Part shown: one piece after another, positions 2,797 through 34,328 of the stretch | Position numbering within the stretch: the first letter of the stretch is position 1 | How the letters are laid out: every line of letters begins with the position of its first letter | Assembly: GCA_020634245.1 (NCBI GenBank) | Contig: JACKCC010000007.1 | Location: 484,555 to 548,554 of the forward strand | Direction: 5' to 3' | Length of the DNA stretch: 64,000 nt | Source: Ardenticatenaceae bacterium | GTDB taxonomy: Bacteria; Chloroflexota; Anaerolineae; Promineifilales; Promineifilaceae | Made by a program: the position numbers and the translations under genes | The notes under the pieces: generated by a model | What the model was told of the DNA's origin: nothing | The model's input: only the letters and a program-made list of their open reading frames with translations | Database searches by the model: none

Positions 2797-3516
2797 TTAA
2801 GCCCTCATGATTTTTTTGATTTGAGTGACACAGGTGTTGCCGATTTGTTTGCTGATTGTGAATTTGTGTGGCAAATGATTCCGCGCATTGCTGGGCATGT
2901 GGCCCGATTGGTTGGTGATGGGCAAACGATTTTGGGGCAGGTGATGGCCGGGGCATTTTTGAGTGATCGACCTATTTTTATTGGGAAAGGGGCGCGGATT
3001 GAGCCGGGGGCTTACGTTGAGGGACCGGCCTACATCGGCGCGGGAGCTGTGGTGCGGCATGGGGCGTTTGTGCGCGAAAATGTGGTTTTGCTGCCGGGGG
3101 CGATTTTGGGGCATGCCAGTGAGGCGAAAAACAGTTTGTTTTTGCCGAAGGCTACGGCACCTCATTTTAATTATGTGGGGGATTCTGTTTTAGGCCACCG
3201 GGTGAATTTGGGGGCGGGGACAAAGTTGAGTAATTTGGGGATGCTGAGTGAAAAGGATAAGGTGACGGGGAAACGGCCGTCTATCCTCTTAACTATCAGC
3301 GAAACCGATTACGATACCGGATTGGCCAAGCTGGGAGCAATTTTGGGTGACGGCGCCCAGACCGGCTGTAATTCCGTGCTTAATCCCGGCTGCCTGATTG
3401 GCCGGAACAGCCTTATCTATGCCAATACCAGCTTGCGTAAAGGCTATTACCCGCCCAATAGCATCATCAAACTGCGCCAAACCATCGAAATCGTGCCTAA
3501 CCGCTTTAACTCTTAG
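2797..3516 (+). CDS. Hexapeptide-repeat (left-handed beta-helix) acyltransferase, GlmU C-terminal-like
   Basis: Repeated [LIV]-G-x-x-x-x hexapeptides (IGAGAVVRHGAFVRENVVLLPGAILG..., VGDSVLGHRVNLGAGTKL...). The start is uncertain: TTG at 2797 or ATG at ~2876. Confidence 0.55.
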   Translation, partial: LSPHDFFDLSDTGVADLFADCEFVWQMIPRIAGHVARLVGDGQTILGQVMAGAFLSDRPIFIGKGARIEPGAYVEGPAYIGAGAVVRHGAFVRENVVLLPGAILGHASEAKNSLFLPKATAPHFNYVGDSVLGHRVNLGAGTKLSNLGMLSEKDKVTGKRPSILLTISETDYDTGLAKLGAILGDGAQTGCNSVLNPGCLIGRNSLIYANTSLRKGYYPPNSIIKLRQTIEIVPNRFNS

Positions 3517-3534
3517 CGATGAACTGATTCGTGA

Positions 3535-29756: not shown

Positions 29757-31406
29757 CTAATCAAACAGGCTTTTTTGCTGCGGGCCGGGTTCCTGGACGC
29801 GCTGCGCCTGTTTGAAGGTCATGCCGGTGGGCGGCATTTGCACCTGCGACCCATTCAGCAGCGCTTCAATCGTTAGAATTTGAATCTTGGGGTAGTTTTG
29901 GTTCCAGCCCGGCGAATGGTAAAAACCGGCCGACGCCGCTTCGGTTAGCATCGGTTTGCTGGGCGTTTCCAGGGTGATAAAGACGCCCATGACCGCTTTT
30001 TCCCGGTCAACTGTGCCTACCAAATCCCGAATCTGGCCGCTGCCGACTTTGCCGCTTTTGACCTGGACGACGATGCGTTTGGGCCGGCCGGTATTGTCAT
30101 CCATGAACGTGATCGTGCCGTCAATGCCCTTGTCGGCTCCCTTTTTGCCTTTTTTGCCGTCGTCACTGCCGCTGGGCATGGCTTTGATGAGCGACAAGGC
30201 CCACCACTCAAACTGGAAGCGGTCGTCCTGGGCCAACTGCTGGGCCGAACGGACTGATTCCGGCTCGCCGATGACGTCAAACGAGGCATCGGGGAACATT
30301 TCTTGCAGGCGGTATTTTTGCAGGGCGATGGAGAGATGGGTGATGTCGATCCCGATCCATTTGCGCCCCAGCTTTTGCGCGGCGGCGATGGTTGTGCCGC
30401 AGCCGCAGAAAGGATCGAGCACAATGTCGCCAGGGTTGCTGCTGGCTTCAATAATCCTTTCCAACAAGGTTAATGGTTTTTGAGTGGGATAACCAAGACG
30501 TTCTTTCGCTTGGGAACTGATGGGGGGAATATCTAGCCAAATGTCTTGTAAGGGAACTCCAGGCATTTCATCCAGATATTGTTTTAGGCGCGGTAATCCT
30601 GTTCTTGTGTAGTATAGTCGTCCTTCCTGATCGAATTTTTGCATATTCTCTCTGGAGTACGCCCAAAATCTGCCTTTAGTTGGCTTACGCCCTTTCCATT
30701 CGTAAGAGGTGTCACCTCCTGGTTTAGCCGCCGTTAAGTCAGTCGCCTTGAAGCGTCGTCCGGTTTCTTCTTCTACATACCGATAGTTGGACTCAACATA
30801 TTCTAGATCGTATTCTGTGTAAACAGTATTCCAAATCCATTCATTGCTCTTTGAATAAAAGAAAATAATGTCATGGATTCGACCCGGTTGTTTTGACCCT
30901 TGTCTCGCGTCACTATGAGCGGACGAGCGTTTCCAGATGATTTCAGCACGGAAGCCTGTGGGATTAAAAACCGCATCAAGTAAGATTTTCAAATAATGAC
31001 TTGCTGTGGGATCGCAATGCAAGTAAAGACTGCCGGTGGGTTTCAAAACTCGGTGCAACTCAACCAAACGGGCTGTCATCATGACCAAGTAAGCCATCAT
31101 TTGATTTGTACCAATAAATTCACGTAAAGCAGCAATCATTCGGCTTACTTCATCTGAAGTCTGGGTGACAAGTTCCTCGTAAAGCGCAGCAGTAGCGTGA
31201 TCCCAATGCCAGGTATCTTCAAATGCGGCAATTTGGGCCTCGGATTCTTCACCGCTTTCATACTTGAACAGGACGTTGTAAGTGCGCTTGGAATTAAACG
31301 GAGGGTCCAGATAAACCAGGTCAACGCTCTCGTCGGGGACGTAGTCGCGCAGGATGGGCAGGTTGTCGCCGTAAAATAACGTGTTTTTCGTGATCGCTTT
31401 GGTCAT
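29757..31406 (-). CDS. Beta-class N4/N6 DNA methyltransferase fused to a C-terminal Mrr-like (PD-(D/E)xK) restriction endonuclease domain
   Basis: DPPF motif IV (LDPPFNSK) precedes motif I (LDPFCGCGTT), which is the beta-class order. The C-terminal ~170 aa carry FQFEWWALSLIK ... DKGIDG ... VVQVK ... IRDLVG ... matching the Mrr catalytic-domain pattern. Confidence 0.75.
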   Translation of the reverse strand: MTKAITKNTLFYGDNLPILRDYVPDESVDLVYLDPPFNSKRTYNVLFKYESGEESEAQIAAFEDTWHWDHATAALYEELVTQTSDEVSRMIAALREFIGTNQMMAYLVMMTARLVELHRVLKPTGSLYLHCDPTASHYLKILLDAVFNPTGFRAEIIWKRSSAHSDARQGSKQPGRIHDIIFFYSKSNEWIWNTVYTEYDLEYVESNYRYVEEETGRRFKATDLTAAKPGGDTSYEWKGRKPTKGRFWAYSRENMQKFDQEGRLYYTRTGLPRLKQYLDEMPGVPLQDIWLDIPPISSQAKERLGYPTQKPLTLLERIIEASSNPGDIVLDPFCGCGTTIAAAQKLGRKWIGIDITHLSIALQKYRLQEMFPDASFDVIGEPESVRSAQQLAQDDRFQFEWWALSLIKAMPSGSDDGKKGKKGADKGIDGTITFMDDNTGRPKRIVVQVKSGKVGSGQIRDLVGTVDREKAVMGVFITLETPSKPMLTEAASAGFYHSPGWNQNYPKIQILTIEALLNGSQVQMPPTGMTFKQAQRVQEPGPQQKSLFD

Positions 31407-31552
31407 TCGTTTGCACCTTTTTGCTAACGGCCGATAGATACCCGATTGTACCCAATGTTGGCGGGAAAATAAAAGCGCCCTACCGGATGACAGGGCGTTT
31501 TGCGTGTGGGACAGGCTGAAACTCAGCTCAGCAAACTGGCAGTCCGAAGAAA

Positions 31553-32638
31553 TCAGGGCAGGACGCGGCGCAGCAGATTGAGCCAGTTGCCGCCCATGAT
31601 GTTGGCCACGTCCGTCTCGGAATAGCCGCGCTCGGCCAGTTTGGGCGCAATGAGGGCTTCGTCGGCGATGTTGTCCATCTCGCTGGGAATGTCTTCACGG
31701 CCAAAACCGCCGTCAAGATCGCTGCCGATGCCCACATGGGCGGCGCTGCCCAGCACCTGGCAGACGTGGTCAATGTGGGCCACGACGTGATCCAGCGTAA
31801 CCAGATGTTTGGGATCACCCATGCTGTGACCGGCGCGCAGGAATTTGTTGAACAGGACGGTTCCAATCACGCCGCCGCGCTCGCCAATGAGGCGGATCTG
31901 GTCATCGCTTAGCTGGCGTTCGGTGGGGACCAGGGCACGGCCGTTGCTGTGCGAGGCGATGATTGGCCCTTCGTAACGATCCAGCGCTTCGAAGATGGCT
32001 TGGTCGCTCATGTGGGTCAGGTCGAGGATGAAGTTGTATTGAGCCATGATTTCCAGGAGGGAACGGCCGTCATCGGTCAAGCCCCGTTTGGCCTGCCAGT
32101 CGCCATCGGCATAGCGCGTATCATCCCAGGCCAGCCCAACAGCCCGCAGCCCGCGTTCATACCAATATTCGACCTCTTCCGGTTCGCGAATGGGATCGGC
32201 GCCTTCCATCAAAGGCACAATGCCGATGAGCCGCTTGTCAACCTCCCGGAGGTTCTGAACCTCCGGGAGGTTGGGGTTACTGGCAATTACCTCATCCAAA
32301 TCGGCCAGCGTGCCCACCAGACGAATGCGCTCGTCCTCGTCGGCCAGCCGATGGTAAAAATCCAACTGGGTCATGGCCAGTTTATGCGCTTCCTGAGCGT
32401 TGAGATAAATGATGTCGTTTTCAAAGGAGGGGTTTTTACGGCTGGCCGGAGAGACGAACAGCGTGCCAAAACAGAGTCCGATGCCGCCTTTTTGCATGGC
32501 GTCAAAGGCAACGGTGGCCTGACCGCGATGGCGATCCCGTTTTTCGGTGGCGCGGATGTGTGTGAGGGGATGGCGGGGGTTACGGCCGTAACCCAGCGCG
32601 TTGTAAGCCAGATCAAGATGAGCGTCTACAATGAACAT
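31553..32638 (-). CDS. Membrane dipeptidase (peptidase M19 / renal dipeptidase family)
   Basis: MFIVDAHLDLAYNAL... is the M19 family N-terminus. TIM-barrel metal ligands are present. Confidence 0.8.
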   Translation of the reverse strand: MFIVDAHLDLAYNALGYGRNPRHPLTHIRATEKRDRHRGQATVAFDAMQKGGIGLCFGTLFVSPASRKNPSFENDIIYLNAQEAHKLAMTQLDFYHRLADEDERIRLVGTLADLDEVIASNPNLPEVQNLREVDKRLIGIVPLMEGADPIREPEEVEYWYERGLRAVGLAWDDTRYADGDWQAKRGLTDDGRSLLEIMAQYNFILDLTHMSDQAIFEALDRYEGPIIASHSNGRALVPTERQLSDDQIRLIGERGGVIGTVLFNKFLRAGHSMGDPKHLVTLDHVVAHIDHVCQVLGSAAHVGIGSDLDGGFGREDIPSEMDNIADEALIAPKLAERGYSETDVANIMGGNWLNLLRRVLP

Positions 32639-32644
32639 AGTTGG
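32581..32644. repeat. Direct repeat copy 1 (native 5' end of the dipeptidase gene)
   Basis: 64 bp, about 89% identical to 33291-33354. It starts at a tACGGCCGTa octamer. Confidence 0.7.
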
Positions 32645-32654
32645 TTTATGGGGG

Positions 32655-32996
32655 TTACTTTTGCAGCCAGTCGATCAGACGGCTTCTGATGAGCTGCAAT
32701 CGTGTTGATGAAATATGGCCCAGACGGGCCGAAATTATCGATGCTTCCACACTGGCCAATCGCGCTAACCGGACGACTGAACGTACCTTCAAACCGGCAG
32801 TTTCAAAATCAGGGTCAGATGCCTCGATTATCTCGTCAAAATCAGGGGTGGTCTGGTAGGCACGAGAAGAAATCAAGGCCAGCAGCAAATCTGGATGACG
32901 GCCAGGAGCAACAGCAACAACTAAAGCTGGGCGTAACTTTCCTGTTTGCAAATCTGTTTGGGGGAAGCGAATGAGAACGATGTCGCCGGGGTTCAT
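32655..32996 (-). CDS. mazF: Type II toxin, MazF/PemK family mRNA interferase
   Basis: GDIVLIRFPQTDLQTGKLRPALVV is the canonical PemK/MazF N-terminus. Confidence 0.8.
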   Translation of the reverse strand: MNPGDIVLIRFPQTDLQTGKLRPALVVAVAPGRHPDLLLALISSRAYQTTPDFDEIIEASDPDFETAGLKVRSVVRLARLASVEASIISARLGHISSTRLQLIRSRLIDWLQK

Positions 32997-33238
32997 GGAT
33001 GATAAATCTCTTTGGCGTCCTTCAAGGTATATTCGACTTCGTCATCCTCGTGGAAAAACTGTTCCAGCGTAAAATCCTGCCACTGACGATTGCTCCAATT
33101 GGCATATAACGGGGCTATTTTTCGCCTGGCCATCATAAAGAAAGTGAAATCAGCAATTTGTTGTACCAGATCATCCGGCAGACTACTGATCTGTTTCAAC
33201 AATTGTTCACGGGAAATTGTTTCAGGCATAACAGTCAC
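32993..33238 (-). CDS. Putative cognate antitoxin
   Basis: 81-aa ORF overlapping the mazF start by 4 nt (ATGA). A palindromic ATGAAAgtgatatTTCATATGAA lies in its promoter region at 33258-33281. Confidence 0.55.
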   Translation of the reverse strand: MTVMPETISREQLLKQISSLPDDLVQQIADFTFFMMARRKIAPLYANWSNRQWQDFTLEQFFHEDDEVEYTLKDAKEIYHP

Positions 33239-33285
33239 CTCGCAGGATGCAATGAAAGTGATATTTCATATGAATTATAGCATGT

Positions 33286-33348
33286 TCAGGTACGGCCGTA
33301 ACCTAGCGCATTGTAAGCCAGGTCAAGATGGGCGTCTACGATGAACAT
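33286..33348 (-). pseudogene. Duplicated 5' fragment of the dipeptidase gene (direct repeat copy 2)
   Basis: Encodes MFIVDAHLDLAYNALGYGRT then stop. It differs from 32581-32644 by ~7 substitutions, mostly transitions. Confidence 0.65.
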
Positions 33349-33360
33349 GGTTGTGACTGG

Positions 33361-34230
33361 TTATTTTGTTATCAGTTCACGAAGCCGGGCCAGATTGACC
33401 GGATCCATTTCGATTTCATTGCCGTCTTCATCTTCTTCCGTTTTGGGCGTTTCCAGATGGGCGGAATGGTTGGCCCAGCGTGGGTCGTTGACGAAGTTGG
33501 CGAAACCGTCCAGACCGATGAAGCCGTCGCCGATGTGGGCGTGGCGGTCTTTTTGCGAACCCAGTTCAAATTTGCTGTCGTTGAAGTGGAAGGTTTTGAT
33601 GTGATTCAGGCCGATGATCCGGTCGAATTCGGCCATCGTTTTTGCATACGTTTCCGGTGTGCGGATGTCGTATCCGGCGGCAAAGACGTGGCAGGTGTCG
33701 AAGCAGACGCCTATCCGGTCACTGCCGCTATCTTCTAGCAGTTGGGCTAGATGCTCAAATTTACAACCCAGATTTGTGCCCTGTCCGGCCATCGTTTCCA
33801 GGCAGACAGTGACGTTGGGAGCGGTTACGGCCGTTTCCTCCACCAACCGCCGCAAAGCCCGCGCAATATTGGCCAAGCCGGTCGCCTCATCGCCGCTGAC
33901 ATAGGAGCCGGGGTGGAACGTCAGCAGCGGAATGCCCAACAGCCCGGCCCGTTCCACCTCTTCCTTGAGCGCCTGATATGATTTTTCCCACAGCGCCTCA
34001 TCGGGTGAAGCTACGTTGATGAGATAACTGGCATGAACCGCCACTGGGAAAATATCATGTTCGGCTTCTGCTTTTTTGTAAGCATCAATATCTTCAACGG
34101 TGAGCGGTTTGGCGTTCCACTGCCGGTTGCTCTTGGTAAACACCAGCATCGATTCGCAGCTGGCTTCCTGCCCCCGTTCAAACGCTTTGTAAACGCCGCC
34201 CGCGGCGCTCATATGTGCCCCTAATCGCAT
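33361..34230 (-). CDS. nfo: Endonuclease IV (AP endonuclease, xylose-isomerase-like TIM barrel)
   Basis: MRLGAHMSAAGGV ... HASYLINVAS ... matches the Nfo family. The track ORF extends to 34302. Confidence 0.8.
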   Translation of the reverse strand: MRLGAHMSAAGGVYKAFERGQEASCESMLVFTKSNRQWNAKPLTVEDIDAYKKAEAEHDIFPVAVHASYLINVASPDEALWEKSYQALKEEVERAGLLGIPLLTFHPGSYVSGDEATGLANIARALRRLVEETAVTAPNVTVCLETMAGQGTNLGCKFEHLAQLLEDSGSDRIGVCFDTCHVFAAGYDIRTPETYAKTMAEFDRIIGLNHIKTFHFNDSKFELGSQKDRHAHIGDGFIGLDGFANFVNDPRWANHSAHLETPKTEEDEDGNEIEMDPVNLARLRELITK

Positions 34231-34328
34231 AAATTCTCCTTGAGTGAGGTTGCGAGGTTGCGGAGTTGCGAGGTGGTGGTTTGCGAGTAAAAAAATATGC
34301 ACTCATCACTTGCTACTCCGCCACTCAT

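Follow-up and report, generated by a model that had tools for sequence, protein, structure and literature searches.

How can a bare toxin-antitoxin pair, with neither integrase nor transposase, settle in a bacterial chromosome, and how can the gene into which it inserts remain whole? This question is raised by a locus of an Ardenticatenaceae bacterium (Chloroflexota; assembly GCA_020634245.1, contig JACKCC010000007.1), in which a short open reading frame (ORF) of 78 amino acids (aa) and a toxin gene of the PemK/MazF family lie between nfo, encoding endonuclease IV, and the gene of an M19 dipeptidase. The locus is part of a stretch of 64,000 nucleotides (nt), hereafter the window, in which all genes discussed below are found on the minus strand. 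The colonization of chromosomes by such pairs is poorly understood, and the locus provides a clean natural example, accompanied in related DNA by an empty site, three diverged occupied sites (that of the window included) and decayed or replaced versions. We conclude that it is a real and old insertion of a PemK/MazF toxin-antitoxin pair with long target duplication, a mode of insertion that is already known from restriction-modification genes. More specifically, we regard it as likely that a minimal toxin-antitoxin cassette inserted in this way in an ancestral chromosome, at a junction between nfo and the dipeptidase gene that acts as a hot spot, and that the relic left behind by the duplication later exchanged sequence.

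The order of the elements, from 5' to 3', is nfo, a relic ORF, a promoter-like element, the antitoxin gene, the toxin gene, the dipeptidase gene and a terminator-like hairpin (Table 1). The repeat search returned one direct repeat, whose two copies of 63 nt are aligned without gaps, are identical at 57 of 63 positions and are spaced 710 nt from start to start. Each copy consists of 58 nt of the dipeptidase coding sequence and of 5 nt lying upstream of its ATG codon. A first-pass annotation of this DNA had described the first 64 bp of the coding sequence as duplicated with about seven, mostly transition differences; the duplication is real, but its size, its difference count and its purely coding content had to be revised. 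The actual differences are six, all of them transitions, five occurring at silent third codon positions and one at position -1. The same annotation had rightly seen that the distal copy forms a short ORF ended by a stop codon: its ATG lies 12 nt past the nfo stop codon, its first 19 residues are identical to those of the intact gene and it reads MFIVDAHLDLAYNALGYGRT before the TGA. A generic repeat occurring at many loci was not seen, the two copies in the 64-kb window being dipeptidase-derived. The 58-nt repeat pattern, with three mismatches allowed, gave one match in the window versus 0.00 expected, and blastn-short located just the two copies in the window; of the other loci, only the two with the same cassette yielded a second one.

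The 647 nt between the copies contain, as had been proposed for some 650 bp, the toxin gene, the overlapping antitoxin gene and a promoter element, and nothing else; a palindrome noted with them is present in the window but is not conserved in the two related occupied loci described below. The insert has a GC content of 46.7% (46% at third codon positions), compared with 54.8% (63%) for nfo and 59.4% (71%) for the dipeptidase gene. Domains of recombinases or transposases were found neither in the insert nor among the scanned ORFs of at least 140 aa within about 8 kb. No inverted repeats were found at the insert ends, and the features of a transposon or insertion sequence are lacking, the duplication being at least 63 nt long. 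The left junction lies just 3' of a copy of the palindromic octamer ACGGCCGT, and at the right junction TAAC is common to the nfo end and the toxin end, a possible microhomology of 4-5 nt.

The insertion itself is best read from related DNA. Nine other dipeptidase-containing loci were available (L001, L002 and L010-L016); scanning with the dipeptidase alignment gave L001 from genomes and the short locus L002 from metagenomes, and homologue look-ups gave the others. The exact sequence of the window dipeptidase had no record, whereas the homologues listed comprise about 20 dipeptidases with at least 76% identity and thousands that are more distant. Their dipeptidases are 64.9-87.2% identical to that of the window, and nfo precedes the dipeptidase gene in L001 and L010-L014 as well. 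L013, with a dipeptidase 65% identical, is an empty site in which nfo is followed by a 20-nt spacer, the dipeptidase ATG and a single copy of the sequence that is repeated in the window. This sequence is likewise single-copy in L010-L012, L015 and L016. The comparison with an empty site, which the first-pass annotation had asked for, thus supports its view of a cassette insertion that duplicated the 5' end of the gene and preserved its reading frame; no locus was found that carries the duplication without the toxin-antitoxin genes. Two loci, L014 and the nearest genome locus L001, a metagenome-assembled genome (MAG) of Candidatus Promineifilaceae (Chloroflexota), have dipeptidases 86-87% identical and show the arrangement of the window, i.e., nfo, relic ORF, antitoxin, toxin and dipeptidase. 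In all three the junction has the same form, GGC CGT NNC TGA AYA TGC TAT AAT, the toxin stop lies 11-16 nt from the second repeat copy, and the duplication is ungapped, covering 58-59 nt in L001 and L014. The flanking genes of the three loci are 82-85% identical in DNA and roughly equidistant. Therefore the insertion predates the split of these lineages, unless the same joint formed repeatedly, and the earlier view that the event is not very recent holds. In L002 and L016 a decayed toxin fragment lies directly upstream of the dipeptidase gene. L001 also indicates how long the duplication once was: the stop codon and spacer of about 30 nt upstream of the relic copy (R) match those upstream of the intact copy (I) at 24 of 33 positions, a value reached in 0 of 2000 shuffles, so that the original duplication must have measured at least 93 nt and started at or just after the nfo stop codon.

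The following course of events would account for these observations. A cassette of about 0.65 kb, consisting of its own extended -10 promoter, the 78-aa antitoxin and the PemK/MazF toxin, would have entered an ancestral chromosome resembling those of Ardenticatenaceae/Promineifilaceae, landing near codon 20 of an M19 dipeptidase gene that then followed nfo after a short spacer. The target would have been duplicated over the nfo stop codon, the spacer and the first ~60 nt of the dipeptidase gene, of which the window still shows 63 nt and L001 at least 93 nt in recognizable form. Beside nfo, one copy would have stayed as the 20-codon relic ORF; the other probably restored the dipeptidase gene to full length downstream of the toxin, where stop codon, spacer and ATG follow each other as they formerly did after nfo. 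A duplication can in this way preserve not only the interrupted gene but also its expression context. Integrase, transposase and attC site would have had no part in the event, and the joint was most likely made by illegitimate joining, at the level of microhomology, at a DNA break. The cassette would then have been kept as an addiction module, small cassettes at the junction being gained, swapped and decayed later on. The silent-only divergence of the relic, discussed below, would reflect gene conversion with the intact copy or recombination with alleles of relatives, and less likely a useful peptide.

This mode of insertion has a precedent in units with a different cargo. Insertion of restriction-modification (RM) units with long target duplication was reportedly described by Nobusato et al. 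in 2000 (in Gene, volume 259, page 99), a report cited in a review of the subject. It has been described by Kobayashi's group (PMC2853133, Furuta, Abe & Kobayashi 2010; review PMC3874152) for compact addiction-type units without mobility genes, flanked by direct duplications of 46 to >400 bp that are single-copy in insert-free genomes and often overlap a gene end; DNA breakage was proposed as the mechanism, together with a cycle of insertion, repeat-mediated amplification and release (PMC2853133; PMC3874152). Furuta et al. (2010) looked for a complete unit of <20 kb without mobility genes, a duplication >30 bp, an alignable empty site and a repeat that is not multi-copy (PMC2853133), and all of this is found at the window locus, repeat copy number being judged within the 64 kb and the toxin-antitoxin pair replacing the RM genes. 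The two cases share an addiction unit free of mobility genes and a slightly diverged direct duplication that exceeds 30 bp and is of the order of 100 bp. They differ in that the cargo here is a type II toxin-antitoxin pair and the host a member of the Chloroflexota, in that the event is old, its lineages having diverged by about 15% in DNA, and in that the duplicated part is a gene 5' end whose relic was kept as an intact mini-ORF. In the literature searched, which was incomplete, no report of such an insertion was found for a classical toxin-antitoxin pair, to which the locus extends the pattern known from RM units. Its practical consequences are modest: it is a case study in evolution and mobile DNA and not a new type of system, notable in that the relic is conserved at the protein level, that long duplications recur at the junction and that a palindrome is iterated.

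The junction between nfo and the dipeptidase gene is a regional hot spot for small cassettes, mostly of the toxin-antitoxin type. At this place L010 has an unrelated ORF of 90 aa, L011 a TfoX_N gene together with an alcohol dehydrogenase gene, and L012 a decayed RelE/ParE toxin gene (TIGR02683, 71 bits against NCBIfam with a frame-corrected translation; Pfam gave no match on the L012 insert) with a weak antidote partner and a DUF2442 gene. L015 has remnants of an L012-type array and a DUF4160/DUF2442 pair. L015 branches with L001 as its sister in the dipeptidase tree and is nested among the cassette bearers, so that cassette content departs from the history of the host gene and cassettes must have been gained, lost or swapped. 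On both sides of the RelE/ParE cassette of L012 lies a 40-nt sequence duplicated from the nfo 3' end (2200-2239 and 3048-3087 of that locus; 35 of 40 positions identical). The cassette inserted about 12 nt before the nfo stop codon and provides nfo with a new tail of six codons. L012 thus shows a second, independent long target duplication at the same junction, and its nfo relic carries amino-acid-changing differences, as expected for dead sequence.

The first-pass annotation had also pointed to an octamer, tACGGCCGTa, coinciding with the boundary of the duplication. The octamer is indeed there, at the inner end of the distal copy, but its weight as evidence is reduced by its abundance: no octamer is more frequent in the window than ACGGCCGT, with 111 occurrences in the 64 kb versus about 1.2 expected, and the next palindromic one occurs six times. 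Its extended consensus is GGnAACGGCCGTTnCC. Most related loci (L001, L003, L009-L016) carry one copy per 0.55-0.9 kb or so, but the integron-like locus L017 has a single copy in 6.3 kb and the insert none; a further window copy lies at 33827-33834. Every relative, including the empty site L013, carries the octamer at codons 17-19, which means that this copy existed before the insertion. A random joint would fall within a few nt of an octamer copy in about 3% of cases, and neither the L012 junctions nor the right junction of the window have a copy. A role of the palindrome in the break is possible in this one case. In being highly iterated the octamer is similar to HIP1, a palindrome of cyanobacteria; the HIP review (PMC4390886) concerns cyanobacteria only.

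What has happened to the relic since the insertion is less expected, as it does not decay like a pseudogene. Relic and intact copies of the same genome (window, L001 and L014) differ by 12 synonymous and one non-synonymous change in total, the silent changes numbering 5, 3 and 4, respectively, and the only replacement being H7R in L014. Random substitutions on the relic sequence are silent 25-32% of the time, and the probability of at most one non-synonymous change among 13 random ones is about 5e-7 to 1e-5, depending on kappa; restricted to the approximately eight changes placed by eye on relic branches, the probability becomes about 4e-4 to 2e-3. These values are derived from three relic sequences with about 13.5 silent sites per copy. 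Between relics, the proportion of synonymous differences (pS) amounts to 0.51-0.59 and that of non-synonymous ones (pN) to 0-0.023, while between intact copies pS is 0.15-0.37. It had been suggested that the silent position of the substitutions reflects purifying selection on the retained gene. Their silent position is confirmed, but such selection does not suffice to explain it, because the changes of the relic itself are nearly all silent. The idea that all silent differences stem from a donor-derived foreign 5' end was rejected, given that the relics kept diverging silently after the split of the three lineages.

Among three possible readings, repeated exchange with functional copies is the most likely cause of this silent-only divergence. 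The exchange could take the form of conversion with the intact copy of the same genome, of recombination with functional alleles of relatives, or of a cycle of excision and Campbell-type re-insertion. Exchange between R and I is supported by the state GGT of codon 16, which is found in the window only and there in both copies, and by the silent R-I distances given above, which are somewhat smaller within a genome than across genomes (4-8). Indirect selection, by which relic variants would now and then convert the essential copy, is probably too weak, judging by a rough population-genetic argument. The relic ORF provides a measurable handle on whether such repeats go on recombining after the insertion.

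Several observations weigh against the account favored here, that of an ancestral insertion with later exchange of the relic. The insertion event is not observable, and the microhomology at its junction spans only 4-5 nt. Duplication is not a constant companion of the movement of this cassette family, as the solo cassettes in L009 and L007 have no flanking duplications above shuffle level. Toxins at the orthologous position resemble each other (73-78% amino acid identity) no more than they resemble the copies found elsewhere (73-79%), so that the cassette may have been replaced or may have inserted repeatedly at the same site. As to the exchange, the evidence for gene conversion between R and I is suggestive but not significant with so few silent sites per copy, and the larger silent divergence among relics than among intact copies implies that R is not often overwritten by its own I copy.

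Two rival explanations assign the relic a more active part, and it is unlikely, although well short of negligible, that one or the other is right, i.e., that the cassette and a captured gene piece of 60-90 nt form a self-propagating, integrase-free mobile unit or that the relic is a selected micropeptide or leader. Either, if true, would be of interest, since the way in which minimal toxin-antitoxin and RM units move has long been unexplained and would thereby gain a mechanism or a new component. For the mobile unit, which we consider rather unlikely when taken alone, the cassette with its captured target copy (H) would cycle as a circle: recombination between the repeats would excise it, and a single Campbell-type crossover between H and the 5' end of a resident dipeptidase gene would re-insert it and regenerate the duplication. 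H would then serve as an attachment site that needs no integrase and would remain compatible with the protein because it becomes part of a functional gene start after each integration; the protein-level conservation of the relic would be the footprint of this life cycle. Such a cycle accounts for the silent-only divergence of the relic, for the absence of the cassette from L015, which is nested in the cassette-bearing clade, and for identical junctions despite unequal divergence of the cassettes (antitoxin DNA of L001 and L014 is 87% identical and that of either and the window 73-76%, with equidistant flanks). It also fits the 'virus-like cycle' that has been put forward (PMC2853133) for RM units having long direct repeats. 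However, an H of only 63-93 nt, diverged by about 10%, is a poor substrate for RecA-type recombination. The flanking genes are kilobases long, and double crossovers there would work far more efficiently and leave R unrefreshed. In a circle, as in a tandem copy, the toxin end would be joined, via one repeat copy, to the TGAAYATGCTATAAT end, and no circular junction, tandem amplification or precise-excision allele was seen; moreover, the relic tree is star-like and departs from the cassette tree. Translation of the relic ORF by re-initiation after nfo, with direct selection on the peptide or on its translation, for example as a leader or micropeptide that affects expression of the toxin-antitoxin pair or the dipeptidase, seems more doubtful still and is improbable. 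The 12 synonymous changes against one non-synonymous, and the contrast between pN and pS among relics, speak for it; the duplication took in the native initiation context; the TGA has been kept; and the reading frame is that of nfo in three of three genomes, with spacers of 12, 30 and 15 nt, whereas a control relic, the nfo 3' end of L012, decays with non-synonymous changes. Yet only three relic sequences bear on the question, no Shine-Dalgarno sequence precedes the ORF, and exchange with functional copies can give the same pattern, RNA folding being without covariation. H7R in L014 affects the parent enzyme's metal-binding histidine, so that no enzyme-like role is kept, and we know of no toxin-antitoxin system that uses such a peptide.

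The remaining rivals call on a site-specific recombinase. Toxin-antitoxin genes commonly outlast the rest of a decayed element, and the two repeats might be the attL and attR sites of an integrative element that brought a replacement gene start, the remainder having been deleted or the element being a miniature one mobilized in trans. Integration by an integrase typically leaves, at a gene end, direct repeats of 40-100 nt through which the gene is restored, as discussed in PMC2853133. Similarly to the attachment sites of phages and integrative elements at the ends of tRNA genes or at the 3' or 5' ends of protein genes, the window has direct repeats of tens of nt and an interrupted gene that stays functional. 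Differently from them, it lacks a recombinase, which was searched for within the limits given above, as well as further element DNA, the insert being of 647 nt, and its repeats differ along their whole length with no identical core. A deletion would have needed flush ends, since the -10 box follows the relic stop after only 5 nt and the second repeat copy follows the toxin stop after 11-16 nt, and a large element at the junction was found in none of the nine related loci; we judge this origin very unlikely. Placement of an integron gene cassette at a secondary site by an integron integrase, with later loss of its attC site, is hardly credible, even if the same toxin-antitoxin family has attC-like sites in L017 and L007 and two of three folded L017 sites are more stable than shuffled sequences. 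No attC-like motif was found in the window, and the 16 nt between the toxin stop and the dipeptidase ATG leave no room for one. Moreover, integron recombination leaves its target unduplicated.

The link of the cassette family with integrons nevertheless deserves description in its own right. Toxin-antitoxin cassettes are well known from chromosomal integrons, e.g., the superintegrons of Vibrio. Integrons and attC arrays occur in many phyla (PMC4889954). In L017 and L007 the toxin gene of the family is followed by attC-like sites of ~130-145 nt with the layout R'' GCCCAAC, L'' GTTGCAGCCGAC ... L' GGCGGCTGAAC, R' GTTGGGC, and in L017 the toxin-antitoxin cassette is followed by a DUF4160 cassette, which makes up an array with these sites. 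The attC-like elements are located at 2205-2335, 2470-2612, 3378-3520 and 4137-4404 in L017 and at about 1650-1830 in L007. Of the L017 sites, three were folded; two gave imperfect hairpins more stable than shuffled sequences (z = -2.5 and -3.6), and the third did not (z = -0.7). The call thus rests on the R''/L''...L'/R' layout and on folding, and not on a curated model; Rfam returned nothing for the repeats of L017 and L007, and the retrieved stretch shows no integron integrase. It would follow that the toxin-antitoxin family also travels as integron-type cassettes, and the same family is in this way tied both to integron-like arrays and to the window copy, which has no attC and is flanked by a target duplication.

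The antitoxin-toxin pair is kept in L001, L003, L007, L009, L014 and L017, and the contexts vary: the cassette lies between an LVIVD-repeat gene and pgi in L003, between leucine-biosynthesis genes in L009, beside an rve fragment in L007 and within the cassette array in L017. Homology across these contexts is limited to the stretch from the -10 box to the toxin stop. Viral-contig scans gave no match for the junction motif or the toxin family. There are 744 toxin homologues; the 120 listed are 68-100% identical, and every source name among these 120 is a Chloroflexota-type MAG or a metagenome. One of these proteins, from an Ardenticatenaceae MAG, has the same sequence as the window toxin. The solo cassette of L003 lies between 33-nt hairpin copies (2616-2648 and 3365-3397) that are perfect reverse complements, and the same is seen in L004. 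Instead of a duplicated target, these hairpins may represent a dispersed element; a terminator present twice and transposon-like ends are further possibilities.

The 78-aa ORF and the PemK/MazF gene constitute, by their sequences, a type II toxin-antitoxin pair, toxicity and neutralization being putative. The toxin matches PemK_toxin (PF02452) over residues 3-110 with 50 bits against a cutoff of 23.1 (E=3.8e-13), and the antitoxin has a weak match to DUF2281 (18.6 bits, below the cutoff of 26.5) and no NCBIfam match. The toxin had no match to a PDB sequence at E<=0.01, and its AlphaFold2 model, built with 32 close homologues, has a mean pLDDT (predicted local distance difference test) of 56, too poor for a fold search. 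Similarly to MazEF and PemIK (Kis-Kid), the pair has the antitoxin gene first, an overlap of 4 nt, a PemK_toxin-matching toxin of about 110 aa and its own, here predicted, promoter, and often occurs as a stand-alone island of two genes. Differently from them, its antitoxin is not MazE/PemI-like, DUF2281 being its only and weak match, and its toxin has no sequence match of solved structure. The promoter-like character of TGCTATAAT is suggested by its sequence: GCTAnAAT of the -10 element is invariant in five cassettes from four contexts, and the consensus promoter scan left the element out, as it has no -35 match. An operator role of the palindrome that overlaps the -10 box is uncertain, since the window alone carries it among the three occupied loci.

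Table 1. Coordinates of the elements between the dipeptidase terminator and nfo (window numbering)
Element	Position	Strand	Remarks
nfo (endonuclease IV)	33361..34233	-	upstream gene of the original nfo-dipeptidase pair
nfo stop codon	33361-33363	-	
Relic ORF (R), 20 codons and TGA, MFIVDAHLDLAYNALGYGRT	33286..33348	-	in frame with nfo
Distal repeat copy (relic copy R), dipeptidase positions -5 to +58	33291..33353	-	57/63 identical to 32581-32643
ACGGCCGT octamer, inner end of distal repeat copy	33292..33299	.	codons Y17-G18-R19
Insert between the repeat copies, 647 nt	32644..33290	-	promoter, antitoxin and toxin, nothing else
Extended -10 promoter-like element TGCTATAAT	33274..33282	-	5 nt past the relic stop codon
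Near-palindrome ATATTTCATATGAATTAT	33261..33278	.	inverted repeat I8; overlaps the -10 box; possible operator
Antitoxin gene, 78 aa	32993..33229	-	ATG after GAGGTG Shine-Dalgarno; mechanical ORF start is GTG 33238
PemK/MazF-family toxin gene, 113 aa	32655..32996	-	start overlaps antitoxin stop (ATGA, 4 nt)
Proximal repeat copy, 5' end of the intact gene (I)	32581..32643	-	from the repeat search
ACGGCCGT octamer, same place in the intact copy	32582..32589	.	
Intact M19 dipeptidase gene, 361 aa	31553..32638	-	ATG 16 nt past the toxin stop
Terminator-like hairpin with T-run	31476..31497	-	3' of the dipeptidase gene

The host genes are assigned with high scores: nfo matches Pfam AP_endonuc_2 (E=2.7e-56) and TIGR00587 of NCBIfam (304 bits, cutoff 129.65), and the dipeptidase matches Peptidase_M19 over residues 2-357 (E=2e-59). 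The hairpin downstream of the dipeptidase gene is the only terminator-like match outside coding sequence from nfo to this point, the others lying within coding sequence and having stems of 5-6 pairs; this placement is consistent with a predicted single transcript covering nfo, the relic, the toxin-antitoxin pair and the dipeptidase gene.

A few further features of the relic region were noted. A promoter-like sequence, TAGACG-17-TACAAT, lies inside the relic copy (33310-33338, minus strand), and its -10 hexamer is made by a silent AAC-to-AAT change in the relics of the window and of L014. The first bases of the insert, TGAACAT (33283-33289), are the reverse complement of the dipeptidase start ATGTTCA (33342-33348); their pairing could form an RNA hairpin around the whole relic ORF, for which the three sequences show no covariation. 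For the RNA from the nfo stop to the antitoxin start, a predicted hairpin with pairing of ATGTTCAT and ATGAACAT was dropped as it shows no compensatory changes.

Within the dipeptidase coding sequence, 32239-32273 is a perfect palindrome of two 17-nt arms separated by 1 base (CAACCTCCCGGAGGTTC / GAACCTCCGGGAGGTTG); it corresponds to a loop of variable length in the protein (361 aa in the window vs 352 in L001) and encodes NLPEVQNLREV. Directly upstream of the nfo Shine-Dalgarno sequence, at 34249-34279, there are three tandem 8-nt units (GTTGCGAG / GTTGCGGA / GTTGCGAG). Directly downstream of the dipeptidase gene, at 29757-31406 on the minus strand, a 549-aa fusion of an N6/N4 DNA methylase and an Mrr/NA-iREase1-like nuclease is encoded. 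L014 and L015 have proteins of similar size after the dipeptidase, L001 has dnaE directly after it and L016 arsenic-resistance genes, so that the downstream side of the dipeptidase gene appears to be variable as well.

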